Below are positions 7,082 to 28,200 of a stretch of DNA of 64,000 nt, piece by piece. Source of the stretch: an uncultured virus (IMG/VR IMGVR_UViG_3300018050_000923) (lineage: Duplodnaviria > Heunggongvirae > Uroviricota > Caudoviricetes); IMG/VR virus record IMGVR_UViG_3300018050_000923; one strand, 5' to 3'. The translations under genes were made by a program, and so were the position numbers. Positions within the stretch are counted from its first letter, which is position 1; every line of letters starts with the position of its first letter. A model generated the notes under the pieces. The model worked only from the letters and a program-made list of their open reading frames with translations. It was not told the origin of the DNA and did no database searches.

Positions 7082-7312
7082 ATGACAACTCCGTGGGAGA
7101 GATATAAGCAAAATTTAGGATCAACAAGGCCTTGGGATTTATTAAATCCTCAAGCACCAAGAACAACAGATGAGGTCGCATACTCTAGATATAATATATG
7201 CTTGTTGTGTCCAGAACTAATTAATGCTACAAAGCAATGCAAGAAGTGTGGATGTTTCATGAACCTTAAAGTAAAATTAGAAGGGGCTACATGCCCATTA
7301 GGAAGGTGGTAA
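7082..7312 (+). CDS. Small Cys-rich metal-binding protein (DUF6171-like by recollection)
   Basis: CLLC..CKKCGC..CPLGRW. Confidence 0.6.
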   Translation: MTTPWERYKQNLGSTRPWDLLNPQAPRTTDEVAYSRYNICLLCPELINATKQCKKCGCFMNLKVKLEGATCPLGRW

Positions 7313-7314
7313 AT

Positions 7315-7881: not shown

Positions 7882-8654
7882 AGAAATCTATTGTCTACTC
7901 TTTATACTTTGAAAATAATCCAATAACTCATCATAATTATTTACAATTAAAAAAATCTATAGAATCAATAAGAAAATTTTCTAATATAGATATTTTTATA
8001 TATTTATCTTCAGACTATGACTTAAAAGAAAATTTTATAAAAACAAATAACATAAATATTATAAAGTTTGATAATAATTTAGTGTTTAAAAAATGGAGCG
8101 ATAAAATACCAAACCACCCATGGAATGTTTGGCTTCATCATAGATGGATTAATATATTTAATTTTTTAACAAATAATGAATATGATAAGATTTTATATTT
8201 AGATACTGATACAATATTTTATAAGAGTCCAGAAGAACTTTTTAATAAATATAATAAAGATATATGTTATTTTAAAAAAGAGTTTAATGATAATGTTGTA
8301 CAAGATTTTATAAAAAAAATATCAATATATCCAGGCATAAATGATGGTCAAATGATTATAAGTAAAAATTCAATAATAAAACTATATGATTCATTTGAAA
8401 ATCAATGGACTAAAGAGATCAGTAACATTACAGATCTAGTTTATAATGATTTAACTAAAGATAATGATCATATATTTTTTTGGAATGTTTCACAATATGC
8501 AGCGCTTTCTTGTATTATAAAAAATAATATACAATATGAATATTTTGATGATAAAGATATTGCACTTGGCATAGACTTTGATCGCATGGACAAAAAAGAA
8601 ATATTTTTGCATCATTATTTTTCTGGAAATATGAGGAAATATATAAATGAATAA
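7869..8654 (+). CDS. GT-A fold glycosyltransferase (GT8-like)
   Basis: LKKSIESIRK..YDKILYLDTDTIF (DxD)..INDG..Q..HHYF; very AT-rich. Confidence 0.7.
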   Translation: MDGIKKSIVYSLYFENNPITHHNYLQLKKSIESIRKFSNIDIFIYLSSDYDLKENFIKTNNINIIKFDNNLVFKKWSDKIPNHPWNVWLHHRWINIFNFLTNNEYDKILYLDTDTIFYKSPEELFNKYNKDICYFKKEFNDNVVQDFIKKISIYPGINDGQMIISKNSIIKLYDSFENQWTKEISNITDLVYNDLTKDNDHIFFWNVSQYAALSCIIKNNIQYEYFDDKDIALGIDFDRMDKKEIFLHHYFSGNMRKYINE

Positions 8655-9207
8655 AGAATATGGAATAATAAAGAATGTTTTAAACACTAAAGACTTTTTA
8701 AATATTTCAAATTATTTTTTAAATAATGAAAAATTAAAAAATATTGGGACGGATGAGTTTGGTAGAAAGTTATTAGGTGATCAGTCTGAACCAATATTGA
8801 AAGAATTTAGCGATATCTTACTTCCCAAGGTTAGAGAGTTTTTTGGAAGCGAAACATTAAAATCTTCATATAATTTATTTGCAGAATATTCAGCAGACAC
8901 AATTAGTCTTCATAAGCATAAAGATGCAAATGCCTGTACGTATACCCTAGACTTAACGCTATATCAAAAAGAACCTTGGGGTATTTTTATCAATGAACAA
9001 GAGTTTTTGGCAAATCCAAATGATGCTGTAATGTTCATGGGTGAAAAATACGAACATTGGAGAGAAACAAAGTATAACAATTATGATAAAATTGGTGTAG
9101 TGTTTTTTCACTACGTTGAGCCAGATCATTGGTATTTTACAGAGGGTCCAGGGTATGTTGAAAAAATAAGAGAACAAATGAGGAGTAATAATGTCATCAA
9201 TAACTAG
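8647..9207 (+). CDS. 2OG-Fe(II) oxygenase-like protein
   Basis: LHKHKDANACTY..GEKYEHWRE..VFFHYV: HxD..H. Confidence 0.65.
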   Translation: MNKEYGIIKNVLNTKDFLNISNYFLNNEKLKNIGTDEFGRKLLGDQSEPILKEFSDILLPKVREFFGSETLKSSYNLFAEYSADTISLHKHKDANACTYTLDLTLYQKEPWGIFINEQEFLANPNDAVMFMGEKYEHWRETKYNNYDKIGVVFFHYVEPDHWYFTEGPGYVEKIREQMRSNNVINN

Positions 9208-9907
9208 CCCAATCGCTATTAAAAACTTTTTGCCACCGCATATGTTTGGCAATGTTAAAAAGCAAATATTAGATAAAAAAATGGGACCAGACGGAAATCA
9301 TTTTTATCACACCGTTGCTGGTAGATGGCTGACGGAAATTCATTTTGATGAAGAAACAGAAAAAGAAATCTTAGATATAGCAAGAAAAACATTTAATAAT
9401 CCAAACTTAAAACGTGCAGGGTTTCATACAGCAAGGTACCAAATGCAAAATGGAATTAAGCCACAATTGTGGAAGCATTGGGATCAGTCTGCTTGTCAGT
9501 ATTCTTTAGATATCTGTATTGAGAAAACTGTAGATTGGAAACTAGTTGTTGAAGATCAAGAATTTGAAGAAGAGCCTAATAGTTGTGTGCTATTTTCTGG
9601 AAACGATATGCTTCACTGGAGAACTCCATATCCTAGTGATAAAGAAGACGATTATGTAACATTATTATTTATGCAGTTTGCAGAGCCTGACCATTGGTTT
9701 TTTACAGAAGGTGGAAAGGCTGGCTTTGATAAGCATGGACATGAAGCGGACTTTAGATTTAGAGCCAGAATGGGATATTGGTCTCAGCCAGATTATTCCG
9801 ACGGAAGACCAATATGCCCATGCTGCGATTACCGTGGTGTTTTAGAATTTGAAGAACGATATCAAAAAGAAAAACACCTATGGGAAAATGCTAATTTGGA
9901 AAATTAG
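9191..9907 (+). CDS. 2OG-Fe(II) oxygenase-like protein, paralog of the previous gene
   Basis: LWKHWDQSACQY..GNDMLHWR..EPDHWFFTEG shared with 8647..9207; extra CPCC tail. Confidence 0.65.
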   Translation: MSSITSPIAIKNFLPPHMFGNVKKQILDKKMGPDGNHFYHTVAGRWLTEIHFDEETEKEILDIARKTFNNPNLKRAGFHTARYQMQNGIKPQLWKHWDQSACQYSLDICIEKTVDWKLVVEDQEFEEEPNSCVLFSGNDMLHWRTPYPSDKEDDYVTLLFMQFAEPDHWFFTEGGKAGFDKHGHEADFRFRARMGYWSQPDYSDGRPICPCCDYRGVLEFEERYQKEKHLWENANLEN

Positions 9908-13857: not shown

Positions 13858-14313
13858 TTGGCAACAGTCAACAAGGACTTCAAGGTTAAAAATGGACTAA
13901 TCGTCAATGGTAACGGTGAGTTCGGAGGAACGGTAGTTGTAGCAAACCCTACATTATCTACCCATGCTGCTACTAAGGCATATGTTGACTCAGTAGTTGG
14001 CGGTATGCAGGTTGGGAATACCGCTCCCTCTACACCAGACAATGGTGATTTATGGTTTGACACATTAACATCAAGAGTTAATGTTTATTATTCTGGATCA
14101 TGGATTACCATGGCAGCAATTGACGATACATTAAATCTTCCACAGCATATTCACGACACTGCAATTGATGGAACTGGATTTATAGTATCTCAGTTTGTTA
14201 CTGGTGGTAGTTTTAATGACCCTCAGGGTTCTTCAATAGATGCAGGATCCTATAATACCAACTCATGGACTCTAGTTTATGATGGCGGTATAGCAACAGA
14301 TAACTTCAATTAA
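13858..14313 (+). CDS. Fibre-associated protein
   Basis: Probable TTG start after GGGAG; ATVNKDFKVKNGLIV shared with 12221; AATKAYVD, GDLWFDT. Confidence 0.6.
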   Translation: MATVNKDFKVKNGLIVNGNGEFGGTVVVANPTLSTHAATKAYVDSVVGGMQVGNTAPSTPDNGDLWFDTLTSRVNVYYSGSWITMAAIDDTLNLPQHIHDTAIDGTGFIVSQFVTGGSFNDPQGSSIDAGSYNTNSWTLVYDGGIATDNFN

Positions 14314-14320
14314 AAACTGA

Positions 14321-14329
14321 TGTTATAAT
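14321..14329 (+). promoter_or_regulatory. Extended -10 promoter
   Basis: TGTTATAAT preceded by an A-tract. Confidence 0.55.
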
Positions 14330-14376
14330 AAGCACAGAAATAAATTGGTAGAAATACCATAAGGAGAGATAAAAAT

Positions 14377-16272
14377 ATGGCAACAAGAATGCAGCAACGC
14401 AGAGGAACTGCACAGCAATGGACAGATGCAGATCCAATTTTAGCAGCAGGAGAAATCGGATTTGAGACTGACACTGGTCAATTTAAAATTGGTGATGGCG
14501 TTAACCACTGGGAAGATCTCTCCTACTTTAAGAACCTAGAAGACCTAGGTGGAAACTTAGATGATTATATTCTTTTAACAGAGAAGGCAACAGCAAATGG
14601 CGTTGCTACTCTCGATGGTACAGGAAATATTCCAATGTCACAACTTGGAAATATTATTGATGGAGCACCAGCACTATTAAATACATTAAATGAGATAGCA
14701 AACGCAATTGATGATGATTCAACTTTTGCTAACACAGTTGTTGCATCTTTATCAACAAAAGCACCAACTGCTTCTCCTAGTTTAACTGGAACTCCAACAG
14801 CACCTACTCCATCTTCAAGCAATGATTCAAATCAAATTGCAACAACAGCCTTTGTTAAGGCTCAAGGGTATGCTATTGCATCAACAGTAGATACAAATAA
14901 GACTGATGCAGACAATGCAATATCTTTGTTAGATGGAAGACTTGATACAGCAGAATCTGATATCAATACACTACAAAATGATTTAGTAGCAGTACAAGGT
15001 GATGTAACAACATTACAGGGAAGCACAACATCATTAGACGGAAGACTTGATTCAGCAGAGTCTAATATTACTACTCTACAGGGAGACTTGTCCACTGCAG
15101 AAAATAATATAACAGCAATTCAAGGCGATGTAACAACAGCACAGTCAGATATCAATGCTGCAGAAGGCAGATTAGACACTGCAGAATCAGAAATTGACGG
15201 ATTACAAAGTAGCCTTACAACTGCTGAAGGTGAAATTGATCAACTTCAGACTGATGTAACATCTTTACAGACTGATGTAACGGCGCTACAAGGAACAGTT
15301 GATACCCCTACAACTGGTCTTACTGCTAGACTTACTGCAGCAGAATCAGATATAGGATCTCTACAGACAACAGTAGATACACCAACTACAGGTCTTTCTG
15401 ATCGCATGACTGCAGCAGAAGGAGATATCAGCACTTTACAAGGAGATCTTGATACAGCAGAAGCAACATTAGCAACAGCAGTATCTGATTTAGATACACA
15501 TGAAGCAGCAACAACAACTGTTCATGGAATTGCAGATACATCTGCTCTTGCTACAAAGTCTTACGCTGATACAGCAGCAACTAATGCACAGACATCAGCG
15601 CAGTCTTATGCTGACACAGCACTTGCTTTAAAGGCACCGTTGGCTTCTCCAGCACTTACTGGAACACCAACTGCTCCAACAGCAACAGCAGGAACAAACA
15701 CAACACAGGTTGCTACAACAGCGTTCGTTGGAACAGCAGTAGCAAATCTTGTTGCATCAGCACCTGCAGCATTAAATACACTGGATGAACTTGCAGCAGC
15801 CCTTGGTGATGATGCTAACTTTGCAACAACAGTTACAAATAACTTAGCAGCAAAGGCACCACTAGCATCTCCAACATTTACAGGAACAGTTGCTCTTCCA
15901 GCAGCATCTTCTGTAACACTAAATGGAACTGCTCTTTCTGCAACACTTGCAGATAAGGCAGATAAGACAGCATCTATATCTTCAAAGTCAGGAGCATACA
16001 CATTTGCTTCTGGAGATGTTAATATGATATTTGAGTATAACTCAGGATCAGCAGGAACATTTACAATTCCAGCAGATAACTCGTTCTGGACAGTAGGACA
16101 GAGACTAGAAGTCTTGCAGGTTGGAGCAGGCCAGTTAACAATTGCTGGTGGCTCTGGAGTAACTGTAAATGGCACTCCTACAACAAAAACAAGAACAACT
16201 TGGTCTGGAGCAACTATTATTAAAAGATCTGCAAACGTCTTCGTAGTAGTTGGAGACCTTGCTTCTTCATAA
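14377..16272 (+). CDS. Tail fibre: Mtd-N-like head, coiled-coil shaft, C-terminal 'GDL' domain
   Basis: QRRGTAQQW..LAAGEIGFETDT..KIGDG; heptad repeats; two APxASPxLTGTPTAPT repeats; ends WSGATIIK..VVVGDL. Confidence 0.8.
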   Translation: MATRMQQRRGTAQQWTDADPILAAGEIGFETDTGQFKIGDGVNHWEDLSYFKNLEDLGGNLDDYILLTEKATANGVATLDGTGNIPMSQLGNIIDGAPALLNTLNEIANAIDDDSTFANTVVASLSTKAPTASPSLTGTPTAPTPSSSNDSNQIATTAFVKAQGYAIASTVDTNKTDADNAISLLDGRLDTAESDINTLQNDLVAVQGDVTTLQGSTTSLDGRLDSAESNITTLQGDLSTAENNITAIQGDVTTAQSDINAAEGRLDTAESEIDGLQSSLTTAEGEIDQLQTDVTSLQTDVTALQGTVDTPTTGLTARLTAAESDIGSLQTTVDTPTTGLSDRMTAAEGDISTLQGDLDTAEATLATAVSDLDTHEAATTTVHGIADTSALATKSYADTAATNAQTSAQSYADTALALKAPLASPALTGTPTAPTATAGTNTTQVATTAFVGTAVANLVASAPAALNTLDELAAALGDDANFATTVTNNLAAKAPLASPTFTGTVALPAASSVTLNGTALSATLADKADKTASISSKSGAYTFASGDVNMIFEYNSGSAGTFTIPADNSFWTVGQRLEVLQVGAGQLTIAGGSGVTVNGTPTTKTRTTWSGATIIKRSANVFVVVGDLASS

Positions 16273-16316
16273 AAAGTAGTATAATTAAATAAATATTGAA
16301 TAGGAGAATGATCTAA

Positions 16317-17375
16317 ATGGCACTACAAAAAACAGGTGACAGAGGAATAAGAAAGGTAGAAGTACCTAATCTGTCAGGAATGACAAGAAGTCAATACCAG
16401 GCAGAGTTAACCCTAAAAGGTTTAACATATACCGAAACCACTACTACCACATCAAATTCTTCATTAGATCAAAAAATAAATACACAAGGCACTGTTGCTG
16501 GTACTATAGTTAATATAGGTACCAGCATTGCCATAAACTATTATCAGTATGTGTATCCTGGTTTTAGCCATTATGCTGCATTCAGCCACTACGCTGGTTT
16601 CAGCCACTACGCTGGTTTCAGCCACTACGCTGGTTTCAGCCACTACGCTGGATTCTCTCACTATGCTGGCTTCTATCACGGATTCTCCCATTACGGTGGA
16701 TTCTCACACTATGGTGGATTCTCACACTATGGTGGATTCAATCATTATGGAGGCTTCTATCATGGATTTAGCCACTATGGATCGTTCTCTCATCAATCAT
16801 ATGGCGGATTCTCACACTCATCATATGGTTCATTCTCACACTCATCATATGGTGGCTTCTATCACGGATTTAACCATTCCCCAGCATCGTACGGTGGATT
16901 TGGAGATTATTTCTCACTATCACCATCTACAGGTGTTAGAACTCCAGGCGGTATCGTAACTGCTGGATCTCTAAATGTTGGAGATAAATTATTAGCATTA
17001 AATATCGCAGAAGTTGGAACAGGTCAATTTGATCCAGCAACATGGTCTTCAGCAACATTTGATGGTATTGAAGTTGTTGAAACAGAGGTTGTGGCAATCA
17101 GAGAAAGAACTGTTGATAAAATTTACAACATCAATGGAAGCCTTTTCTCTCCATATCACTGGATATTTACAAGAAAGGATAATGTCTACAAGTTTGTATT
17201 GTCAAAAGATATTGACACATCATATGAAGTTTATGACTTTGCAAACCAAGATTGGTCTGCAGTTACAAACATCACAGAATTAAACTATATCGACAATGTA
17301 GTTTCTATTAACTGTGAACCTTATGATAACTTCTTTACAGAAACAATGTTAGTCTTCGATACGAAAGATAACTAA
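16317..17375 (+). CDS. PASTA-like domain + (xGFSHY)n repeats + C-terminal Hint domain
   Basis: VEVPNLSGMT..L..KGL (PASTA-like); 18 F-[S/Y/N]-H motifs; SLSPSTGV..LNVGDKL, SPYH, INCEPYDNFF..LVFD (Hint blocks A, B, F/G). Confidence 0.8.
   Translation: MALQKTGDRGIRKVEVPNLSGMTRSQYQAELTLKGLTYTETTTTTSNSSLDQKINTQGTVAGTIVNIGTSIAINYYQYVYPGFSHYAAFSHYAGFSHYAGFSHYAGFSHYAGFSHYAGFYHGFSHYGGFSHYGGFSHYGGFNHYGGFYHGFSHYGSFSHQSYGGFSHSSYGSFSHSSYGGFYHGFNHSPASYGGFGDYFSLSPSTGVRTPGGIVTAGSLNVGDKLLALNIAEVGTGQFDPATWSSATFDGIEVVETEVVAIRERTVDKIYNINGSLFSPYHWIFTRKDNVYKFVLSKDIDTSYEVYDFANQDWSAVTNITELNYIDNVVSINCEPYDNFFTETMLVFDTKDN
16560..16901 (+). repeat. Coding tandem repeat, mostly 18 bp (TTCAGCCACTACGCTGGT-like)
   Basis: Near-exact units at about 16581-16650 degenerating downstream; encodes GFSHY units. 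Confidence 0.9.
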
Positions 17376-17377
17376 CG

Positions 17378-18169
17378 GTGTCACGTAAATATAATAGAGA
17401 CTATTATCCTAATCATGATGCAGACGAGTTTTTATACTCCGATGACCTGGTTGCACTAAACAAAGAACTATTAAAAGATACTAGAGCAACACCATTTTTA
17501 ATTAGTTCTCAGGTGGCGGTAGAAACTAAGGCATATGAAAAACGAATAACTCCATTAATGCAGCAAGGCAAAATATCTGTTACTGTAGGAAATACAGATT
17601 GGAATAAAGAGTATGATGAGGGTAGATCATACTGGATACCTGAAAATAGGTGGGTGCATGAAACTAATCTAAAGCCAATAGAGATAGAAAAAAATCTATA
17701 TGAATTTAGAACGTCTGCAGATGTATTTTTCTTGCCAGCATCTTATGGATATTTTAGTAAACTCACAAATAATAAATATATTCTTCCTTTTCCAAGACCA
17801 GTTAGCAGAACTCTTTATCAACATTTAGAAGTAGATGAAGATATTTTAAAAGATTTAGATAATTCTTTAGAGTTAGAACAAGAGGATATAGACAATATAT
17901 ATAGTAAAGAAAATCCTAATGTTTTTTATCCTTATCCATATTTTTGGAATGTAAGGTGGCTACCTAAAAATTCATGCAAAATAACATTTTATACAACAGA
18001 AGAGACAGAAAAAATAACCAGGGTTCATGTACCACAAATTACTTTAGATTGTTTAGATGATATACAAAGTCTAAAAGTTCCTGTACAATTGTATATAGAT
18101 GTACGGAAAAAATCTCCGTATATAAAGCATGACGAACTAATCATGTACATGAGAGTAGAGGAAATTTAG
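17378..18169 (+). CDS. Hypothetical protein
   Basis: GTG-start ORF 2 nt after the Hint gene; possibly a diverged relative of the next two genes. Confidence 0.55.
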   Translation: MSRKYNRDYYPNHDADEFLYSDDLVALNKELLKDTRATPFLISSQVAVETKAYEKRITPLMQQGKISVTVGNTDWNKEYDEGRSYWIPENRWVHETNLKPIEIEKNLYEFRTSADVFFLPASYGYFSKLTNNKYILPFPRPVSRTLYQHLEVDEDILKDLDNSLELEQEDIDNIYSKENPNVFYPYPYFWNVRWLPKNSCKITFYTTEETEKITRVHVPQITLDCLDDIQSLKVPVQLYIDVRKKSPYIKHDELIMYMRVEEI

Positions 18170-18882
18170 TGTCAAAATCTAATAAAATAACTTTTATACC
18201 AAAAGATGAGTTTACATTTGAGTATGCTCCACTTCCAGAGCCTATGTCTAAAAACCTCCCATCTTGGTGGAGAAAAACAGAACCATTTGTAGGCGGAGAG
18301 CGCAAATTAATAAATGGACAATATAACGAAACAGTAAAAAAATGTCCAGGAATTCTTGATCAAATGGTAACTGGGTATATGTTAAAGTTTCCATGCGATA
18401 TTTATGTAGATGCTACTGGAGATGCTTTAGAGGTTCAGGTTCATCCAGTTCATAATGACACAGTAGGAAAACATAGCAGAGAACAAATAGAGGGATGGAC
18501 TTATGATAAAAATATATATGTTGATGATATTTTTAGAGTACACCCTATGTGGGTAATAGGAACACAAAAGGGATATAGCACGATGTTTGTTCATCCATCT
18601 TATCATGACGATCTACCCTTTGTTACAATTCCTGCTATAATAGATACAGATATGTATATTTCAGACGGACCATTTTCTTTACTAGTAAAGCGTGGCTTTA
18701 AAGGTACTATTGAAAAAGGAACTCCATTAGTTCAGTGTATACCATATAAAAGAGAAGAGTATAAATCTGAAATATTAGAAAAGCCAGACATGAAGGCTCT
18801 AGGGTCAATACCATATAAACTTAGGGCTAAATTCGGCGGAGCATACAAAAATTTCATGTGGGAAAAGAAGGTGTTTAAGTAA
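18169..18882 (+). CDS. Uncharacterised conserved protein (DUF6065-like by recollection)
   Basis: LPSWW..TVKKCPG..TGY..HPSYHDDLPF..IIDTD..KGTPLVQCIPYKRE. Confidence 0.65.
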   Translation: MSKSNKITFIPKDEFTFEYAPLPEPMSKNLPSWWRKTEPFVGGERKLINGQYNETVKKCPGILDQMVTGYMLKFPCDIYVDATGDALEVQVHPVHNDTVGKHSREQIEGWTYDKNIYVDDIFRVHPMWVIGTQKGYSTMFVHPSYHDDLPFVTIPAIIDTDMYISDGPFSLLVKRGFKGTIEKGTPLVQCIPYKREEYKSEILEKPDMKALGSIPYKLRAKFGGAYKNFMWEKKVFK

Positions 18883-19643
18883 TGTCTGATAAGATGGAGG
18901 ACAAGTATAAAGATGTTCCGCCAATGGAAGATCTGACTGCTCAATTTTGGGCATCAACAGCATATCAGATAACACCTCCACCAGTTCCAGCAATTGATAA
19001 TTTACCAGATTGGTGGAAAGATAGACCTCTATATCAAGTAACAGACGACATAAATAAACTAAGCGTAACTTGGAATAAAGGTGCAGATTCAGCAGCAATT
19101 AGTGTTAAACATTGTATGCCATTTTTTGATGCACTAACTATGGGATATCATTTACCATTAGCATGCGATGTTCATGTTAAGAAAACAGATAATCCAGATA
19201 AGCCAGAAATAACCTGGGATGACGATGCTCCACGTCCTATAGAAATGAGAGGACATATAGAGATTCCAGTACCTTCTGGATGTTACCCAATTCATTTTCT
19301 TTGGGATATGAGATGGGGATGTAAACTTCCAGATGGTTGGTCTTTAATGATTACTCATCCTACAAATAGATACGATCTTCCATTTTTTACTGTTACTGCA
19401 ATACAAGATTCAGACAGATGGTTTGGTGGAAATGTTGTAACATTCTTTTTAAGAAAAGATTTTGAAGGAACCATTCCTAAAGGAACCCCAATTATACAAT
19501 TTACTCCAATTAAAAGAGCAAATTGGACAATGGAGATAGATCATGATCTTCAGGCCGAAGGTCTTTGGGATGTAGAAAGAAAAAGAAATTATCTTTATGG
19601 ATTTTACAAGAAACACCGTTGGGTGAGAAAAAAATATAGATAG
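18882..19643 (+). CDS. Paralog of 18169..18882
   Basis: LPDWW..SVKHCMP..MGY..HPTNRYDLPF..QDSD..KGTPIIQFTPIKR. Confidence 0.65.
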   Translation: MSDKMEDKYKDVPPMEDLTAQFWASTAYQITPPPVPAIDNLPDWWKDRPLYQVTDDINKLSVTWNKGADSAAISVKHCMPFFDALTMGYHLPLACDVHVKKTDNPDKPEITWDDDAPRPIEMRGHIEIPVPSGCYPIHFLWDMRWGCKLPDGWSLMITHPTNRYDLPFFTVTAIQDSDRWFGGNVVTFFLRKDFEGTIPKGTPIIQFTPIKRANWTMEIDHDLQAEGLWDVERKRNYLYGFYKKHRWVRKKYR

Positions 19644-19651
19644 GAAAAAAT

Positions 19652-20314
19652 ATGGAAAACAGATCAAGTTATGGCGATGCATTTCAGCCTAGTACAAGTA
19701 AGTCTACAAAAGAACATAAATTCTTTGAGAGACAAATAGATATCAATAATTTAGATGCTCTTGAATCTCTTCTTTTATCTCAATACAAAAGAATAGAAAA
19801 TGGAGAAGTAGTTAAGCAAAAACTAAACGATCATACCCCATGGGATGATTCTGGAAGTATAACTACTATGAATTGGAACAAGTATAATGTTTTTCAGTTT
19901 TATGATCAAAACATTCATACACTGTTTCGTGCCGTAAAGGATATGACTGTAGATGCTTGTGAGCATTATGGACTTGATTTTGTTCAAGAACAATTTATGG
20001 TTCAGGGATGGTTTAATGTTAACTATAATCATATCGGAAAATTGGACTGGCACGAGCACGGAGGAGATGGTGCTCCTTACTTCCATGGATATTATTGCGT
20101 AAAGGCAGAACCATCAGTTACTCATTATCGTGTTTTTGAAAAAGAAATAGAAAACCACAATAGAAATAATCGTGCCATACTTTCTGAAACTGGGCATCCA
20201 CATGCTATGGGTGACTGGGACTGGGATGGTCCAAGAATAACTATAGCGTATGATGTTATTCCGCTAAGATATATTCCAAAGGAATGGGAGCAACACTGGA
20301 TCCCAATGGTGTGA
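19652..20314 (+). CDS. Putative 2OG-Fe(II)/cupin oxygenase
   Basis: GWFNVN..DWHEH..GYYCV..HPHAM..RITIAYD double-stranded beta-helix pattern. Confidence 0.65.
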   Translation: MENRSSYGDAFQPSTSKSTKEHKFFERQIDINNLDALESLLLSQYKRIENGEVVKQKLNDHTPWDDSGSITTMNWNKYNVFQFYDQNIHTLFRAVKDMTVDACEHYGLDFVQEQFMVQGWFNVNYNHIGKLDWHEHGGDGAPYFHGYYCVKAEPSVTHYRVFEKEIENHNRNNRAILSETGHPHAMGDWDWDGPRITIAYDVIPLRYIPKEWEQHWIPMV

Positions 20315-20315
20315 T

Positions 20316-20645
20316 ATGGAATATTTCCTAATTGCATTATTATTACTATTTTCTTTAGTTTTTAAAAAGTATTCTATTGATACAAAATTAACAATTAAAG
20401 AATTAGAAAAAGATAAAAACTATTTTAGAAATACACTATGGAATAGGCTTTATTATTTAAATAAAGATGCAAAATCTACAGATTTTAGATATCAAAACTT
20501 GAAAAAAAGAATTGATGTATTAATTAATGATATAGAAGATACTGATTTTTCAAATTTTGATGGAGATGCAAAATATGAATTAATAAATGCATTAAAAGAG
20601 ATAGATTTTTATGGAGATTCAAATGATTCAAATAAAAATAAATAA
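20316..20645 (+). CDS. Small protein with N-terminal membrane anchor
   Basis: FLIALLLLFSLVF. Confidence 0.5.
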   Translation: MEYFLIALLLLFSLVFKKYSIDTKLTIKELEKDKNYFRNTLWNRLYYLNKDAKSTDFRYQNLKKRIDVLINDIEDTDFSNFDGDAKYELINALKEIDFYGDSNDSNKNK

Positions 20646-20823
20646 GTCTTGCCAGGCTTGGGGACAGTGTGTTTTTGATGCTCCAGAAATATTCGATCTT
20701 GTAGATAGTGAAAGAAAAACATGGAAGTATAATGCTGATGATTCTATGTTAGAAAAAATATCTATCGCAGCATCACATTGTCCCAACAGAGCAATATCAT
20801 TTAAAAAGGTTGAAGATGAATAG
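20623..20823 (+). CDS. 3Fe-4S-type ferredoxin
   Basis: CQAWGQC...APEIF...AASHCPNRAI. Confidence 0.8.
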   Translation: MIQIKINKSCQAWGQCVFDAPEIFDLVDSERKTWKYNADDSMLEKISIAASHCPNRAISFKKVEDE

Positions 20824-20941
20824 TTTGATTTGTAAAATTAAGGGACATAAAGCAGATAAAAAAGAAACGACTTGTCCATTTACATTAAAAACCTATCAGG
20901 TGTGTGTAAGGTGCGGTATCAAAAGGGTTAAACCAGAATGA
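20816..20941 (+). CDS. 41-aa Cys/His zinc-binding-like protein (absent from ORF track)
   Basis: MNSLICKIKGHKADKKETTCPFTLKTYQVCVRCGIKRVKPE; overlaps both neighbours (ATGA coupling). Confidence 0.65.
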   Translation: MNSLICKIKGHKADKKETTCPFTLKTYQVCVRCGIKRVKPE

Positions 20942-22089
20942 AAATAGCAGCATACGGAATAGGTAAAAACGAAGAAAAAAATATACCAGGTTGGTTTGAA
21001 GGTATAAAAGATGCAGATTACGTTTTATATGTAGATACTGGATCAACGGATAAGAGTGTTGAGATAGCAAAATCTTTAGGAATTGATGTTAAGTTTTCTT
21101 ACTTTGACCCGTGGGATGAAACAATGGCTAAAAATGCTGCTCTTTCTTTTATACCATTGGACTTTGATTATTGCATTAACCTAGACATGGATCAACACAT
21201 GAAAAGCAAAGATTGGAAAGAAAAGATATTATTAGAAAATGGCGATTACGAAATAATGTCTTTTAACTTACACTCTTCTCACGGCTTAGCAGATTCTAAT
21301 GTAATTAAAAAATCATTTAAGATCCATAAAAGACAAGGACTTTTTTGGTTTGGATATAGACCAGAAATTAAAAAAATAGGATACAACATTGAAACTGCTT
21401 CTGCTAAAACCTTAGATATAGTGGTTTCTGACATTCCTGGAGATGAGGCTAGGTTTGAAAACAGGGATCCTTTGTATATTAAGTCGTATAAAAATTATGT
21501 AGGAAAATTAAAAAGATCTAGAAATAATGGCATTATGGTTCAGGCTTTAAATTCTTTAGCATTGTCATATTATGAAGTAGACGATAAAGAAAATTTTGAA
21601 AATGTTTATTATGAAATGCAAGAGTTTATATCAAAGGTAGAAGTTGAAAATGATGTAGAAATACCAGATCAGTATGCTGTTAATTTAGCATACACTTTAT
21701 TTAATCCTAATAAAACAATAGATATTTATAATAAGTTATATGGATCTTCAGAAATAAGTTCATATCAAAAATTTTATTTAGATTTAAGAAAAGCAATAAT
21801 TTATTATAAGAAAAAAGAATATCAAAGATTAGAAAAAATATTAAATTTGATTGATTCTGAAAAAACATTTTATGAAGGCAACGAAACCAGATGGGATTCA
21901 TATGCTTTATCAGAAACAGAAATAAACATAATAAAATATTTAAAAAATATAAAAGAAAACAAAAACAATCAAGAATATATAAATGAATTAGATAATCTGT
22001 GTCTTATTGTGTTTTCTAGCATAAATTGGGGCAAGTGGCACACTGATTTAGCACAAAAAAGTTTTGATTATTTTGAGGGGCTAATGTGA
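20938..22089 (+). CDS. GT2-family glycosyltransferase with helical C-terminus
   Basis: GKNEEKNI..VDTGSTDKS..KNAAL..NLDMD. Confidence 0.75.
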   Translation: MKIAAYGIGKNEEKNIPGWFEGIKDADYVLYVDTGSTDKSVEIAKSLGIDVKFSYFDPWDETMAKNAALSFIPLDFDYCINLDMDQHMKSKDWKEKILLENGDYEIMSFNLHSSHGLADSNVIKKSFKIHKRQGLFWFGYRPEIKKIGYNIETASAKTLDIVVSDIPGDEARFENRDPLYIKSYKNYVGKLKRSRNNGIMVQALNSLALSYYEVDDKENFENVYYEMQEFISKVEVENDVEIPDQYAVNLAYTLFNPNKTIDIYNKLYGSSEISSYQKFYLDLRKAIIYYKKKEYQRLEKILNLIDSEKTFYEGNETRWDSYALSETEINIIKYLKNIKENKNNQEYINELDNLCLIVFSSINWGKWHTDLAQKSFDYFEGLM

Positions 22090-23096
22090 ACACAGTAATG
22101 GTAACTGGCGTTGCTGGTTTAGTTGGAAGCAATATTGCTAAAAAATTAATATCAGAAGGATATAATATTGTAGGTGTAGACAATTTTATAGGTGGATATA
22201 GAGATAATGTTCCAGAAGGCGTTTTTCTTATTGAAAAAGATTGCAATGATTTAACAGAGACTGATTTTATTAATGTAGAAACTGTAGTTCATGCTGCATG
22301 TACACCGCATGAAGGTCTTTCTGTTTTTTCCCCAAAGTTTATAACAGATAATACATTTGGCATATCCATGAATGTTTTAAAATGCTCAATACAGTCTGGT
22401 GTTAAAAAGTTTATTTTTACATCAAGTATGGCAAGATACGGTTCTCAAGACATAGTTCCATTTACTGAAGATATGATCCCAAATCCACAAGATCCGTACG
22501 GTATAGCAAAAATTGCATTTGAAAATTCTCTTAAAATTCTTTCAGAAGTTCACGGTATAAAATATGTAGTATTAATTCCACACAATATTATTGGTCCTGG
22601 ACAAGTATATACAGATCCATTTAGAAATGTTGCAGGAATTATGATAAATAGAATGCTAAAAGGATTACAGCCAATAGTCTATGGTGATGGTACTCAAATG
22701 AGATGTTTTTCTGATATTAAAGATGTTGTGGATCCAATATACCATGCTGTAGTAAATGATACAGTAAATGGAGAAACCATAAATATTGGTCCAGATAAAA
22801 ACTATATAACTATTAATGAATTAGCACATACTATAGGAAAAATTATAGGGATGAATGTCGAACCAATATATCTTCCAAAAAGGCCTAAAGAGGTTAAGTT
22901 TGCTAATTGTTCTGCAGACAAAGCAAGAAGTTTATTAAATTATAACCCTGTAACAACTCTTGAATCAACAATTACTGATATGGTAAACTGGGTTAGAACA
23001 AGAGGTCCATTAGATTTTAATTATAATTTACCTGTTGAAATTGTAAATGAATTAACTCCAAAAACTTGGACAGATCAAAAAGTTTTTAATACATAA
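22086..23096 (+). CDS. NAD-dependent nucleotide-sugar epimerase/dehydratase
   Basis: VTGVAGLVGS, SSMARYG, YGIAK (YxxxK), YGDGTQMRCF. Confidence 0.9.
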   Translation: MNTVMVTGVAGLVGSNIAKKLISEGYNIVGVDNFIGGYRDNVPEGVFLIEKDCNDLTETDFINVETVVHAACTPHEGLSVFSPKFITDNTFGISMNVLKCSIQSGVKKFIFTSSMARYGSQDIVPFTEDMIPNPQDPYGIAKIAFENSLKILSEVHGIKYVVLIPHNIIGPGQVYTDPFRNVAGIMINRMLKGLQPIVYGDGTQMRCFSDIKDVVDPIYHAVVNDTVNGETINIGPDKNYITINELAHTIGKIIGMNVEPIYLPKRPKEVKFANCSADKARSLLNYNPVTTLESTITDMVNWVRTRGPLDFNYNLPVEIVNELTPKTWTDQKVFNT

Positions 23097-23144
23097 TGTG
23101 TAAACCTAAATAATAGCATTAGAGTTTTGTAAAAATAAAAACTC

Positions 23145-23153
23145 TGGTATACT
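23145..23153 (+). promoter_or_regulatory. Extended -10 promoter of nrdJ
   Basis: TGGTATACT; AAGGAG RBS downstream. Confidence 0.55.
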
Positions 23154-23185
23154 TTAGCAATAACAGTTTTTTAAGGAGCAAATCA

Positions 23186-25216
23186 ATGTCTGATTTTTTT
23201 AGTTTTCATTTATCTGAAGAGTTCGTAAATGAGTATAAAACAAAGGAAGCCCCGTTTGGTTTTACAGACGCAGGCGGTAATTCATTAGGAGAGATTACAT
23301 TTATTCGTACCTACTCCCGTATGAAAGAAGATGGAACTAAGGAAAGATGGTATGAGGTTTGCCGTAGAGTAATCGAGGGTATGTATTCAGCACAGAAGAA
23401 TCACGCTAAAGAAAACAGACTACCTTGGAATGACTACAAGGCTCAGGCTTCTGCAAAAGAAGCATTTGATCGTTTATTTAATTTAAAGTGGACTCCACCT
23501 GGACGAGGCTTATGGTCTTTTGGAACAGCATTAACAATGGAGAAAAAGAACTCTGCTGCACTTCAAAATTGTGCCATGGTTTCAACAAAAGATATTGACC
23601 GCAATGATCCAGGACAGTTATTTGGCTGGGTTATGGATGCATTAATGATGGGTGTTGGTGTAGGGTTTGATACTTTGGGCGGGGAGAAAAATCTTCCGAT
23701 TTATACTCCAACAGAACCAGAACAAGTATATGAAATCCCAGATACTCGTGAGGGTTGGGTAGAGTCTGTTCGATTATTAATTAATTCATTTTTAAAGCCT
23801 AATATGTATATCCAAGAGTTTAACTATGACCTTATTAGGCCATTAGGTGCCCCTATTAAGGGGTTTGGGGGCACTGCAAGCGGTCCTGCACCACTTATGC
23901 AGTTGCACAAGCAAATCAGGTCTGTAATAGGCGGTAGAGCAGGAGAAACCCTAGACTCAAGAGCAATCGTAGACATTGTAAACCTTATCGGTACTTGTGT
24001 AGTATCAGGAAATGTTAGACGATCCGCTACCTTGGCTTTAGGTGGAGCAGAAGATAAAAACTTTATGAATTTGAAGAACGCTGAGGTTTTTCCTGAGCGT
24101 AATTCATTTGATCCAGAAAATCCAGGTTGGGCATGGATGTCAAACAACTCCATTGCTGCGACGGTAGGTACAAAGTACGAAGACTACGTAGACCTAATCG
24201 TTAATAATGGAGAACCAGGATTTATCTGGCTTGATGTAGCACGTAACTATGGTCGTTTAGCAGATCCAAAAGATGGCAAAGACTATCGTGTTATGGGCTT
24301 CAATCCGTGTGCGGAGCAGCCATTGGAATCATACGAGTTATGTACACTTGTTGAAGTGCATTTAAATCGTCATGAATCTAAGGAAGACTTCCTGCGGACA
24401 CTCAAGTTTGCATATTTGTATGGAAAGACTGTTACATTAATTCCAACACACTGGCAACAGACAAACGGAATCATGCAGCGTAATCGTCGTATTGGTACAT
24501 CCCTAACAGGTATTGCATCCTTCTCAGACAAATTTGGCTTGCCTGTTGTGCGTGAATGGATGGACGAAGGCTACAAGACTATTCGTAAATATGATCATTC
24601 TTATTCTGAATGGTTATGCGTTCGTGAGTCCATTAGAGTCACAACTGTTAAGCCATCAGGGTCTGTATCAATTCTTTCTGGCGCAACGCCAGGAGTTCAC
24701 TGGGCACCAGGCGGAGATTATTTCTTGAGAGCAATTCGATTTGGGAATACCGACCCAATGATTCACTTATTCAAGGCTGCTGGATATAAGATGGAGGCTG
24801 ACCTTGTATCTGCGAATACAACTGTCGTTTATTTCCCAGTTCATTCTGGCCATCCAAGATCTGAAAAAGATGTTACATTATTTGAGAAGATTGCGCTTGC
24901 TGCTACTGCTCAGAAATACTGGTCAGATAATGGCGTTTCTGTAACGCTTTCATTTGACAAAGAAACTGAAGCAAAGCATGTAGCGCCTGCGCTTCATATG
25001 TACGAGGGACAACTAAAGGCTGTTTCATTCTTGCCGATGGGAAATCATACATATCCTCAACAACCATATACTCAAATAACTAAAGAAGAATACGATAGTT
25101 ATATTGGACAAATCAAAAAGATCGATTGGTCTGCTATTTACGACGGTGCCGAGAATTTAGAAGCACAAGGCGAAATGTACTGCACAACTGATGCCTGTGA
25201 AATAAAAATATCTTAG
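23186..25216 (+). CDS. nrdJ: Class II (B12-dependent) ribonucleotide reductase, monomeric type
   Basis: PPGRGLW, LQNC, GVGVGF, GNVRRSA, NPCAEQ, TTVKPSG, C-terminal CTTDAC. Confidence 0.92.
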   Translation: MSDFFSFHLSEEFVNEYKTKEAPFGFTDAGGNSLGEITFIRTYSRMKEDGTKERWYEVCRRVIEGMYSAQKNHAKENRLPWNDYKAQASAKEAFDRLFNLKWTPPGRGLWSFGTALTMEKKNSAALQNCAMVSTKDIDRNDPGQLFGWVMDALMMGVGVGFDTLGGEKNLPIYTPTEPEQVYEIPDTREGWVESVRLLINSFLKPNMYIQEFNYDLIRPLGAPIKGFGGTASGPAPLMQLHKQIRSVIGGRAGETLDSRAIVDIVNLIGTCVVSGNVRRSATLALGGAEDKNFMNLKNAEVFPERNSFDPENPGWAWMSNNSIAATVGTKYEDYVDLIVNNGEPGFIWLDVARNYGRLADPKDGKDYRVMGFNPCAEQPLESYELCTLVEVHLNRHESKEDFLRTLKFAYLYGKTVTLIPTHWQQTNGIMQRNRRIGTSLTGIASFSDKFGLPVVREWMDEGYKTIRKYDHSYSEWLCVRESIRVTTVKPSGSVSILSGATPGVHWAPGGDYFLRAIRFGNTDPMIHLFKAAGYKMEADLVSANTTVVYFPVHSGHPRSEKDVTLFEKIALAATAQKYWSDNGVSVTLSFDKETEAKHVAPALHMYEGQLKAVSFLPMGNHTYPQQPYTQITKEEYDSYIGQIKKIDWSAIYDGAENLEAQGEMYCTTDACEIKIS

Positions 25217-25236: not shown

Positions 25237-28200
25237 ATGTCTAGTCCGTCAAATCTGTACGCAGAAAAAATATATGCAGAGCATCCACAGTTTTTGTGGG
25301 CACTCGATGATAAGGCTGACTATGTTTCTTTAATTTCAGAAGCACAAAGAGACACATCGGTTTGGGCTATTGACAATGGAATATCTGAAGAAACAGAAGA
25401 ACTACTTGATGCTCCATTTCCAGAAAGCATAATTAATAAAATAAAACCATCTTCAGTAATTGGAGAACTTTTTTCATCAACAATTGTTAGTCCAGATTTA
25501 ATTTCTATAAATGATATAAATTCTGCATTACAAACTTTTTCTATAGGCTCTTATTTTTATAATATTGGGCCATATGTATTAAGTATTGAAATAGGATATA
25601 GGTATTACGATGATGCCTTAGAGAACTATGTCGATGTTTTAAAATCCTATGACGCCTCAGTACAAGGTAGATGGTTTTTTATTTCAGAAACCTTTAGTCC
25701 AGAACAAACAAGTCTGCCTATAAAACTTGTTATTAAAATTAATTACTTTGGCCAGTCTGCAAATATTGATGACTATACATTGTATGTAAATGGAATTACA
25801 TTTGGTCAATGGTGTGAAGAGTTTCAGTCCACTTCCTTGGGTGTTAACACAATATCTTTGCCATCAAATATAGCACTAGATACATCTGATGTTGTAGAGG
25901 CAAAGGCATACGGATTAACAAATAACAGTGGATATTATTTTGTTAACAATAATTCTTTATCAGCAAAAAATTTTGGTATGCCAATGGTTTTTGGATCTCA
26001 GAATATTACAAAATTATATAACAATAATAATGCACCATCGATTATAATTCCTTCGGATGGCATGATGTCGGATGGAGGAAGATACAAAGATTTTACATTA
26101 GAATTTTGGTTAAGAACTAACAACGCATCTTCAGAAGCAAAAAGAATAGTTGGCGCTATATCTTCTGACGACGGCATTTACATAGATGGTCCATTTATAA
26201 TATTAAAAATAAACAAATCATATTCATCGTATTATGTAGGTCAATGGGAAAGGCCAATGCTTATACATTGGAGATATACAAATAATTTATCAACCATTCT
26301 TTTAAATGGAGAAGAAGTTATATCTTTAGCAATTGATAGTTCTTTAATTACATTGCCAGATTCTAAAAATACAGAAGACAAAGAGCAAGACTGGATAGGA
26401 TTCTATGCATACGAAAATATTGAGCCTATTGAGATTGACTGCATTGCTTTATATACATATTCAGTTCCATCTGTTGTTGCGAAACGTAGATTTGTTTATG
26501 GCCAAGGAGTCCAGTATCCAGAAAACCTAAATGCTTCATATGGTGGAAGTTCTGTTGTTTTTGATTATGCTTTTGCAGATTACACTAAAAATTATAACTA
26601 TCCAGACCTAGGATCTTGGTCTCAAGGATCGTTAGATAATGTCTTAGTAGAAGACAACTATATAACTTTTCAAAATTTTAATACTCCAGAAATTTTTATC
26701 AATAGTACCGAAAAAACAAAAGAACAAATGTTATTGGATTGTTCCACTATACAGAATGAAGATAGTTATTTTTTAAAATTAAGACCAACAGAAGATTGGG
26801 AAGGCATAAATTCATATTTATATTTTGATATATTTTCAACATTAAATCAACCAATTCATGCATTCTACGGATTATTTAAAAAACCATTAGAATACTCTGG
26901 ACCAGAAGTTTTAATTAGATTAGAGGATCAAAATTCAAACTATCTATCTATAGAGTGTGTAGGAAATGATATTAGGTATATATTTAAAAAAGACTCTAAC
27001 ATAAAAACCTTGTATGAAATGTTTTCAGTAGATAATACAGATGTTTTTGCTGTAGGAATTGAAATAGATGTATTTAGAGATTATTTTGGAGAAGAACTTT
27101 TATCATTTTTTAATAGTTCTGGATTAACCATGTATGTTGGAGGAACAAAAGAATTTACAAAAACCTTTACTGGAAATATTTATAAAGTAGCAGTTTGTTC
27201 TGAAAAAAATGTAAAGGATATTGCAAATTTATTTAATGAACTTGGAGTTCCAAAAGATTATGAAAATATATTTGATTTGTATGGTCCAAATATAGATTAT
27301 GACGGAGGAGATTCAGATCAAGAATTTTGGGACTATTACTTAAACTACGACACACAGTTTGATTTTAATGCATCAGAATTTTTAAATATTAGATTAGCAG
27401 ATCATGCCCCTAGTTTTGGAGTAATTCCAAAAGTTTATTTTAATAATTTCTACTTAGATGTCTATTCAAGCGGTTCTTGGAAAGACTATATTCCTCTTTC
27501 ATATTTTGGACAGTATGTAACAGACGAGTATGGTAAAAGTAAGTTTGGATTAGATTTTATTCAGTTCAACGTTAATTATCCAGCACCAACTAAATTTAAA
27601 GAAACAGAAGTAATAGATGAAGACGGTTGGACATATGCAGAGTTGTCTGAAGAATACTCGTACCCAGAACAAAGAACTTACGAGTCTTTAGATAATTATC
27701 TTTATACTGGATATGTAGATTATCAAGATTTATCAGAAAGATCACAAAAAACTTATTCGTATGACACTACTGGAGCAATATTAAAAACATATATTACTTT
27801 TGAATATTTAGAAAGTGGGGCAAATGCTTCAGATGGATATTTTATAAACACAAAAGATGTTCCAAAAAATGGTGTTATTTCTCCAGGAAGTGAATGGATA
27901 AATACTAAATATGAAGTTGTTGATAATGTATTAATATATCCTCCAAAAGGAGTTAACTTTAATGATTTAGCAATAGTTGTTCATCTTGACTTTGAGGTAG
28001 ACGGAATTTTACATAACCCGATTAAAGTTAAAAGTTTGCAATTAGCCTCTCAGGCATTTAATTATAATACTGCAAATAATATAGGTACTCGCTTTGGAAC
28101 TAATGTTTATCCTTATTTAAATAATGGTTACTATTTTAACTATAAATCAAAAAATCCATTTAGCATATATAAAGGATCTTCCCCCTACTTATATTTAACG

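Follow-up and report, generated by a model that had tools for sequence, protein, structure and literature searches.

Hint domains are known as inteins, as the processing domains of Hedgehog proteins and as bacterial BIL domains. In passages of PMC7664689, BIL domains are described as mostly cleaving rather than splicing and the C-terminal part of Hedgehog as using only the first acyl shift, and the portion of PMC8616854 that deals with Tetrahymena BIL2 describes how its N-terminal partner is passed to a lysine with formation of an isopeptide bond. A domain of the same fold was recognised at the end of a protein encoded at positions 16317-17375 of a 64,000-nucleotide stretch of DNA, referred to below as the window, from an uncultured virus of the Caudoviricetes (IMG/VR record IMGVR_UViG_3300018050_000923). 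The protein combines a PASTA head, a low-complexity repeat tether and a terminal Hint domain, and its gene is the last of a tail-fibre block. With moderate confidence, the product is read here as a tethered adhesin associated with the tail fibre, whose Hint domain would make an N-O acyl shift at the Phe199-Ser200 bond and so bring about self-cleavage or transfer. The gene and its parts are arranged as follows, with positions counted from the first letter of the window.

16317..17375, plus strand: whole gene, an open frame of 352 amino acids plus stop, encoding PASTA head, repeat tether and Hint domain
16353..16550, plus strand: PASTA domain, residues 13-78 (Pfam PF03793, AlphaFold2 model)
16560..16913, plus strand: Gly/Ser/Phe/His/Tyr tandem-repeat tether, residues 82-199 (118 residues) with 18 F-x-H units, predicted to be disordered as a monomer
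16914..17360, plus strand: Hint domain of BIL/Hog type, residues 200-348 (AlphaFold2, Foldseek, VIA, hhalign)
16914..16916, plus strand: codon of Ser200, the predicted position-1 nucleophile, with the predicted scissile bond Phe199-Ser200; aligned to intein residue 1 and Hedgehog residue 258
17148..17159, plus strand: block B motif S278-P-Y-H281, equivalent of the TxxH of inteins and Hedgehog (hhalign)
17325..17327, plus strand: codon of Asp337 within the conserved C-E-P-Y-D-N-F-F-T, block F region (family alignment)
17355..17372, plus strand: domain end F347-D348 at the intein His-Asn site, then the four-residue tail T-K-D-N (VIA pairing)

The AlphaFold2 model of the protein, built with 52 aligned relatives, falls into three zones of confidence, with pLDDT (predicted local distance difference test) values of about 96 over residues 13-78, 32-39 over residues 87-195 and, for residues 200-348, mostly in excess of 90. 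A first-pass annotation, made from the letters of the sequence, had already called a PASTA part, a repeat and a Hint domain. All three calls were correct, as judged by Pfam, by composition counts and by fold comparison, respectively, and the modelling that it had proposed as a check returned folded PASTA and Hint domains on either side of a low-confidence repeat. Two open reading frames (ORFs) that overlap the gene in other frames, 16549-16959 on the plus strand and 16464-16691 on the minus strand, are taken to be by-products of the repeat, within which they lie in this conserved gene.

The identity of the C-terminal domain was established by its fold. The first PDB match of the model is the BIL domain of Clostridium thermocellum (2lwy, E 6e-7, TM-score 0.78 on the target), followed in the Foldseek list by Tetrahymena BIL2, the Ssp DnaB mini-intein and Hedgehog, with E values from 6e-7 to 5e-5; altogether, 55 PDB matches were obtained at E<=1e-3. 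Comparison by VIA-align gave tied rows for BIL2 (6tmm, Z 18.5), DnaB (1mi8, Z 18.0), Hedgehog (1at0, Z 17.6) and 2lwy (Z 17.4), the best rows having a root-mean-square deviation (rmsd) of 1.6-2.1 over 130-139 residues, and 105 chains reached Z>=8. Because VIA pairs residues 200..350 of the model with residues 258..402 of Hedgehog and residues 200..348 with residues 1..440 of the RecA intein, Ser200 is assigned to position 1 and Asp348 to the site of the terminal Asn. An hhalign comparison with the Hint protein of Erwinia phage pEa_SNUABM_23 (probability 97.2%, E 3.6e-11) pairs THEH of the latter with S278-P-Y-H281 and its His-Asn with F347-D348. In Pfam, Intein_splicing is found at E<=1e-3 in 16/119 relatives (best E 8e-6), and a search of PDB sequences with the family profile gave only sub-threshold intein and PASTA matches, the best with E 0.031. 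The Hint domain of the first-pass annotation was thus borne out by fold in Foldseek and VIA, though not by Pfam. On the modelled structure, the fold, the predicted position-1 nucleophile and the S-x-x-H of block B confirm that the domain belongs to the HINT superfamily.

The residues expected to act in catalysis are conserved across a wide family. At position 1 of 133 complete domains, counted after a correction of three alignment registers that raised the number of serines from 84 to 94, Ser is present 94 times, Cys 21 times and Trp 18 times, which makes Ser or Cys in 115/133. About 170 rows were scored at two further sites. The block B His is retained in 140 of them, among which are all 84 that counted as Ser-type ahead of the correction and 19/21 of Cys type, and at position 337 an Asp stands in 138 and an Asn in 19. 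At the domain end, HN is present in 20/21 Cys-type rows and HD, FD or YD in most Ser-type rows. No nucleophile is conserved directly behind the domain, where Thr349 stands in this protein and S, K, R, T, G or I in the family, and no more than 10 residues follow in about 145/170 rows. The Trp rows form one clade nested among the Ser rows (1 change, support 92), in which the block B His is replaced by Tyr in 15/18 members and Asp337 by Asn in most. We read the long retention of Ser or Cys together with His as pointing to selection for the first step of Hint chemistry.

A word-indexed search among proteins of similar length retrieved 54 relatives at E<=1e-3, and an exhaustive search with the Hint part alone extended the family to 124 clusters (50% identity), of which 71 have E<=1e-10. 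The viral loci comprise 59 related ones and six with a Cys-type domain. Their proteins follow a common plan, with a variable head, a low-complexity repeat of changing type and the Hint domain at the extreme C-terminus. The heads are PASTA domains in 44/119 members (best E 1.8e-35), FN3 domains in 41/119 and other Ig-like domains in a few (Pfam scan). Conservation is highest in the C-terminal Hint domain, and heads and tethers vary. In nearly all members the stretch just ahead of the Hint domain is of low complexity. The median entropy of the 58 residues before the Hint domain is 2.96 bits vs 3.75 bits for the first 58 Hint residues, and values below 3.2 bits are seen in 84/127 of the upstream stretches vs 0/127 of the Hint starts. 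The tethers of 127 members were sorted into FGFTP-like (40), GFxH(Y) (26), PFFPP (9), Pro-rich (7), YNPYDNPPP-like (6), FGAFGA (2) and other (37) types, and PVIIAE, SPVG and PTPTATP units occur in the loci as well. A comparison of repeat units among homologs, as the first-pass annotation had recommended, therefore shows repeat types that differ wholly between flanking domains that are kept.

The family looks viral. When one genome each of 185,579 prokaryote species was scanned, the single match lay on a 10-kb contig of a metagenome bin and no cellular homologs were found. Structural look-alikes in BFVD come from uncultured Caudovirales and bear the UniProt names 'PASTA_pknB domain containing protein', 'Hint domain containing protein' and 'Fibronectin type III', which are given by domain only. 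A tblastn search with the whole protein returned only three weak matches, to Erwinia phage. Distant homologs come from cultured jumbo phages of Erwinia and Dickeya. In Erwinia phage pEa_SNUABM_23 (locus L061, 4957-6399) and in Dickeya phage AD1, a collagen-like part of Gly-X-Y repeats stands before a terminal Hint domain of canonical type with Cys1, THEH and His-Asn-Thr. The description of these proteins as virion structural or tail proteins is an annotation label only.

The head of the protein is a PASTA domain. Residues 14-71 match PF03793 with E 8.2e-6 and 26.1 bits, above the curated cut-off of 23.2 bits, the model shows the strand-helix-strands order, and the top BFVD match is a 'PASTA_pknB domain containing protein' (E 1.3e-17). 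The "PASTA-like leader" of the first-pass annotation hence survives as a PASTA domain and not as a leader, since this part is folded. In cellular proteins the PASTA fold binds peptidoglycan precursors, and by analogy the domain is likely the cell-wall-binding head of the phage protein.

The tether between the two folded domains is built from very few kinds of residue. In residues 82-187, G, S, F, H, Y or A occupy 103/106 positions, and motif counts gave exactly 18 F-x-H units, three copies of FYHGF[SN]H (starting at residues 119, 147 and 181) and eight hexads of the form [AGS][GAS]F[SN]HY; proline is absent from the repeat. The composition, the 18 F-x-H units and the threefold FYH-GF[S/N]H pattern had all been reported in the first reading of the sequence, and the counts agree. 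The same reading had the repeat directly abutting the Hint domain. The two do not quite touch, and 12 non-repeat residues (188-199) separate the last F-x-H unit from Ser200. At the DNA level, a tandem array in 16558-16860 has a period of 18 in 6.4 copies (86% matches, score 155), with further arrays of period 18 in 3.3 copies (score 99) and period 24 in 2.7 copies (score 102). The tether is predicted to be unstructured and is one among many interchangeable tethers of low complexity in the family, and its aromatic residues may add weak, multivalent stickiness.

The position of the gene connects the protein to the tail fibre. Two features lie immediately upstream.

14377..16272, plus strand: upstream tail-fibre gene, 631 amino acids, matching many PHROG tail-fibre families and Pfam Mtd_N
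15817-16269, plus strand: C-terminal domain of the 14377 gene (residues 481-631), the conserved left neighbour of Hint genes

Over 59 loci the gene order is conserved, running from a lysozyme-like gene on the minus strand through small genes and fibre genes to the Hint gene, then (where present) a gene of the type found here at 17378, phrog_7084 and/or 2-oxoglutarate (2OG) oxygenase genes, ribonucleotide reductase, a large gene of unknown function and the portal gene. Counting Hint ORFs of the related loci with at least 600 nt of upstream sequence, 48/52 stand directly behind a gene that ends in the fibre C-terminal domain common to the 14377 and 4579 genes. In 36 cases this gene is of the 14377 type and in 12 of the 4579 type, and the two types occupy different places in the genome. 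At least four contigs and several single loci have a pair of Hint genes, each with a fibre gene of a different type before it, and this genome has one Hint gene. By its conserved position among tail-fibre genes, the 16317-17375 gene belongs to the tail-fibre module. An "adhesive fibre tip", one of the two functions proposed in the first-pass annotation, fits this place at the end of the block, and adhesion itself is a predicted property. A scan for promoters and terminators in 14000-23500 found fewer promoter-like sites than in shuffled sequences and no terminator after the Hint gene.

Behind the 4579-5205 fibre gene of the window, in the slot where related phages have a Hint-terminated protein, lies a gene for a protein of 490 amino acids (5213-6685, plus strand). 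Its head is PASTA-like, with a BLASTP E value of 2e-12 to the family member P0041 and an hhalign E value of 2.6e-5, and is followed by four long (VTPP)n runs that are split by Cys-rich modules and by a Cys-rich end; it has no Hint domain.

Four of the six Cys-type loci (L062, L064, L065 and L066) were annotated and represent a second phage type, with a tail sheath gene in 1/4. PHROG tail-fibre or tail-collar genes stand beside the Hint gene in L062 and L066; in L064 and L065 the Hint ORF lies at the locus edge and the downstream side is covered. Directly 3' of the Hint gene, all four loci have a small gene for 74-103 amino acids of phrog_13558 (L062 7494-7751; L064 682-990; L065 1662-1925; L066 7513-7734), with DUF6171 in the one checked against Pfam, and no equivalent was found in the Ser-type loci. 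Beyond this small gene, L062 and L064 encode a PF13640 oxygenase. Genes for a glycosyltransferase and for phrog_7084 are found there in L064 and L065, and upstream of the Hint gene in L062.

The product of the 16317-17375 gene, seen as an accessory of the tail-fibre module in a siphovirus from the environment, may act in the following way. Ser200, aided by S278/H281 and D337, would attack the Phe199-Ser200 peptide bond and turn it into an ester by an N-O acyl shift. The domain cannot splice, because no conserved nucleophile stands after it and only four residues follow. The ester would be resolved by water, which would free the 199-residue PASTA-tether part from the 153-residue Hint fragment, or by some other nucleophile. 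In such a scheme the Hint domain would work a single time, serving the maturation or attachment of a tethered adhesin on the fibre whose gene lies just upstream.

Several observations weigh against this scheme, and some of them would suit a structural role of the domain equally well. Intein_splicing scores in this protein stay below the Pfam cut-off (13.1-15.5 bits vs 35.8, E 0.015-0.083), and in its branch Phe-Asp replaces the His-Asn of inteins, which marks a divergent Hint domain. The Trp clade retains the fold, the position and the full architecture without a nucleophile, so the Hint domain must also have a non-catalytic role, and the joint loss of Ser, His and Asp in this clade is a single event (1 change, 1 independent pair) that carries no statistical weight in a tree test. 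The Hint-less paralog at 5213-6685 implies that the Hint domain is dispensable for such a protein. The term 'virion structural' is an annotation label, cleavage and virion presence being predictions for the family, and the host assignment given below is based on whiB and capsid similarity only. It is conceivable that the Hint fold is a structural docking module and not an enzyme, and that the intact protein is anchored non-covalently to the virion, for example through the upstream fibre's C-terminal domain, with its variable head on a tether like Ig-like decoration proteins. A most conserved C-terminal domain behind variable heads and tethers is the usual pattern of a virion-proximal anchor, the Trp clade (18/133) has lost the nucleophile, the His and mostly Asp337 without losing fold and architecture, the His-Asn end is degenerate in the protein studied here, and the pairing with one type of fibre C-terminal domain (48/52) is tight. 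Docking alone, however, would not need the Ser or Cys at position 1 (115/133) and the block B His (84/84 of the rows first scored as Ser) that are kept at about 25-30% identity, nor does it account for the full canonical catalytic set of the Cys-type relatives, and we regard a purely structural domain as rather unlikely. A third role, with parallels in the cholesterol transfer of Hedgehog and the isopeptide formation of Tetrahymena BIL2, appears quite improbable. The Hint domain would here be a single-turnover ligase that docks on the upstream fibre's C-terminal domain, makes the Phe199-Ser200 ester, hands the PASTA-tether part to a fibre lysine or, upon contact, to an amine of the host wall and then leaves; the product would be a covalently branched fibre with a tethered cell-wall-binding head, and the Trp clade would bind without ligating. 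The tethered adhesin that undergoes self-cleavage or transfer is the reading preferred here.

The genes downstream of the Hint gene bear on the fate of the tether.

17378..18169, plus strand: gene of 263 amino acids, of unknown family, starting 3 nt past the stop of the Hint gene
18169-18882 and 18882-19643, plus strand: two phrog_7084 paralogs (PHROG E 1e-39 and 1e-29) with a dUTPase/dCTP-deaminase-type fold
19652..20314, plus strand: probable 2OG-Fe(II) oxygenase, as a lead only (ESM Atlas 0.96-0.97 to viral clusters with PF13759)

The 17378 product had no match in Pfam, PHROG or the ESM Atlas and none among PDB sequences with a six-sequence profile, and homologs of its gene were found only in the seven closest of the 59 loci. 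The 19652 product has no Pfam match of its own. Both products were considered as relatives of phrog_7084, and no relation was found in either case. The model of the phrog_7084 protein at 18169-18882 (AlphaFold2, pLDDT 88.6) matches dUTPase and dCTP deaminase in Foldseek (E 6e-4), and in a wide VIA search the top 13 rows were all dUTPases or dCTP deaminases (Z 9.9-7.6), unrelated rows lying at about 3.5. This dUTPase-type fold rules out phrog_7084 as a peptide-modifying oxygenase. Among cultured viruses, relatives are found as hypothetical proteins in tailed viruses of haloarchaea (HF1, HF2, HRTV and others), and a third paralog is present at 61871-62584 (plus strand). The 19652 gene is followed on its 3' side by a small ferredoxin gene, by genes for a glycosyltransferase of GT2-like type (a weak Pfam match with E 1.3e-3, PHROG E 3.6e-29) and for an NAD-dependent sugar epimerase, the last two spanning 20938-23096, and then by ribonucleotide reductase.

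These neighbours invite two readings in which the tether is an enzyme substrate. The first-pass annotation had proposed a multi-core precursor of the RiPP (ribosomally synthesised and post-translationally modified peptide) kind, with the PASTA part as leader, the 18 units as cores to be tailored and released, and the Hint domain aiding the release. The units are indeed short and repetitive, and enzyme genes lie downstream on the same strand, beginning with the 17378 gene of unknown function only 3 nt after the stop. The supposed leader, however, is a folded PASTA domain that is replaced by FN3 or Ig-like domains in at least 41/119 relatives, and the repeats are wholly different between relatives with the same ends. 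Nor do the enzymes fit. Among the maturation-related families that are generally known, no radical-SAM, YcaO, lanthionine-synthetase, ATP-grasp, leader-peptidase or transporter family was found in 11 neighbours (Pfam, E<=0.1); at the same threshold, four of the seven ORFs in 17378-22089 have no family at all and three have matches only to a weak coiled-coil family, to single-cluster ferredoxin families and, weakly, to GT2, none of which is known as a RiPP maturase family. The 18169 and 18882 genes have the dUTPase-type fold, the 17378 gene is restricted to the seven closest loci, and the Hint gene itself sits within a module of structural fibre genes that 59 loci have in common. Precursors of this kind are short leader-plus-core peptides beside a dedicated maturase, with a core that is kept where the enzymes are shared; a protein of 352 amino acids with two folded domains and a repeat sequence that is not conserved among homologs departs from this, and the proposal is very hard to sustain.

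A phage-encoded modification of the tether is a narrower and unlikely, though not implausible, addition, and it would be compatible with the tethered adhesin. The tether may be a substrate of the 2OG-Fe(II) oxygenases of the phage and possibly then of the glycosyltransferase and epimerase (20938-23096), so that the mature protein would be hydroxylated or glycosylated. Genes like those for 2OG oxygenases are found near most members: for Hint ORFs with at least 3 kb downstream, a 2OG-like gene is found within 4 kb in 33/52 and a 2OG-like or phrog_7084 gene in 45/52. In the window, the 7291-7881 gene (plus strand) encodes a PF13640 oxygenase and the 19652 gene resembles PF13759 clusters. A 7291-type oxygenase follows within 2.5 kb in 13/15 ORFs with tethers of at least 25% Pro vs 5/30 with less Pro (45 distinct ORFs, raw Fisher p 9e-6), and Pro-rich tethers with PFFPP, PPPF, YNPYDNPPP or PTATP units occur in loci L010, L015, L017, L018, L021, L022, L027, L031-L034, L040 and L041. 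PF13640 oxygenase, glycosyltransferase and phrog_7084 genes also flank the Cys-type members of the second phage type, with a distribution that differs by locus, and 600 nt separate the (VTPP)n paralog at 5213-6685 from the PF13640 gene (7291) downstream of it. A Pro-rich tether and a PF13640 oxygenase may form a phage pair of prolyl hydroxylase and substrate. A search of the open-access literature on prolyl hydroxylase and proline-rich virion proteins of phages brought up no relevant paper. On the tree, the link between Pro-rich tethers and the oxygenase comes down to only four independent contrasts, of which two or three follow it, the rest show no difference and none is opposite (sign test p>=0.25). 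Pro is missing from the repeat of the protein encoded at 16317-17375, the dUTPase fold of phrog_7084 and the neighbouring ribonucleotide reductase point to nucleotide metabolism, and modification of the tether is a suggestion from gene neighbourhood. Passages of PMC3037559 describe 2OG oxygenase genes as numerous in marine phage genomes and ascribe other roles to them, which likewise counts against a role on the tether.

The window is part of a single-contig virus record of 117,625 bases with 35% G+C and encodes portal, prohead protease, capsid, many fibre proteins, a DnaB-type helicase, a primase and ribonucleotide reductase. The tape measure gene (38486-48109, plus strand) has 3207 codons, which is very long for a 117.6-kb genome. 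The cyanosiphovirus P-SS2, considered as a possible source, has a tape measure of 1886 amino acids (PMC2784084) and was rejected. Outside the window, a whiB-like gene above the Pfam cut-off was found at G000:C1:109153-109326 (locus L060), and the capsid protein is 41-42% identical to capsids of Streptomyces phages with genomes of 127-131 kb. Because of whiB, the capsid similarity and the 35% G+C, the virus is probably a siphovirus of a low-GC actinobacterium. A megablast search of 14000-24000 against cultured phages gave no match.

Further genes of the window were recorded in passing. A gene for 1233 amino acids without a PHROG match (25237-28938, plus strand) lies between ribonucleotide reductase and portal, as in 21/59 related loci. 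The 59581-61125 gene (plus strand), located between the primase and single-strand-binding protein genes, matches a PHROG family annotated as tryptophan halogenase (E 9e-106). The region 7291-9907 (plus strand) comprises the PF13640 oxygenase gene and two genes assigned to phrog_2954, 'ferrochelatase', a label that is doubted here; neither of the two has a Pfam match.

No description of a large and near-purely viral family with a terminal Hint domain behind hypervariable low-complexity tethers in tail-fibre modules was found in the open-access literature. A search of that literature for Hint domains in phage structural proteins gave only terminase inteins, and 'PASTA domain' together with phage, tail and virion gave no paper. 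If the domain cleaves or ligates, phages would have in it a novel means of maturing or decorating the apparatus by which they recognise hosts, and it would be a natural source of Ser-type self-cleaving tags that are free of a C-extein. The PASTA head suggests, by analogy with its cellular counterparts, that phages of uncultured low-GC actinobacteria may read the cell wall directly. Interchangeable FG-like, Pro-rich and Gly/His/Tyr tethers, which may be connected with the many unexplained 2OG oxygenases that aquatic phages encode, offer a testable handle on two questions of aquatic phage genomics.

Compared with known systems, the protein recalls different ones in its different parts. Its single N-terminal PASTA domain has its counterparts in penicillin-binding proteins and PknB-type kinases, to which it is tied by Pfam membership above the cut-off and by weak profile matches of the family to the PASTA-bearing kinase chains 3m9g and 2kud (E 0.09-0.44); unlike them, it comes without a kinase or transpeptidase part. 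The tether is low-complexity and rich in Gly and aromatic residues like FG-nucleoporins and the histidine-rich squid-beak proteins, and relatives have FGFTP and FGAFGA units, but these proteins are not homologous to it. The resemblance to squid or mussel proteins that had been noted at the outset, and likewise a possible binding of metal, is a matter of composition only. As a device that would remove itself from a fibre protein, the Hint domain may be set beside the intramolecular chaperones at the C-terminus of phage tailspikes and fibres (Peptidase_S74 type), which remove themselves after assembly. The analogy is functional only, as fold and chemistry differ; the protein has no Peptidase_S74-type Pfam match at E<=0.1, no search aimed at such domains having been made.

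The closer comparisons concern the Hint domain itself. With class 1 mini-inteins (Ssp DnaB, Mtu RecA, gp41-1) it has the fold and the residues of blocks A and B in common. Unlike them, it is not inserted in a host protein, has no C-extein to ligate and no terminal Asn, and as it has neither the His-Asn/+1 residues nor a Pfam score above the cut-off, it is not an intein. The Hog domain of Hedgehog (1at0, 6tyy) has the same fold (Z 17.6) and the same layout, in which a functional N-terminal part precedes a C-terminal Hint domain that would use only the first acyl shift. The phage domain differs from Hog in lacking a sterol-recognition region, with only T-K-D-N after residue 348, in having Ser in place of Cys and in belonging to a virus of prokaryotes. 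The collagen-like proteins encoded by jumbo phages of Erwinia and Dickeya (such as the 480-amino-acid product of MZ443772, called virion structural in RefSeq copies) are homologous in their Hint domain and likewise place it at the end, behind a repetitive part; they differ by Cys1, THEH and His-Asn-Thr, by the Gly-X-Y repeat and by having no PASTA domain.

BIL domains (2lwy; Tetrahymena BIL2, 6tmm/6y75) offer a likeness in fold and residues, with Z 17.4-18.5 and an rmsd of 1.7-2.1 over 130-139 residues. Both they and the phage domain have an N-terminal nucleophile, a block B His, no conserved +1 nucleophile and variable host proteins. The phage domain, known from sequence and model, is distinguished by its place at the very end of the protein (four-residue tail), by Ser1, by Phe-Asp for His-Asn and by its occurrence behind a low-complexity tether in tail-fibre modules. 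In the terms used in passages of PMC7664689, a Hint fold with a position-1 nucleophile and without a conserved +1 residue defines a BIL domain, and the predicted features of the phage domain agree with that definition. Because no +1 nucleophile is conserved, cleavage rather than splicing would be expected of it, as the same passages indicate for BIL domains.

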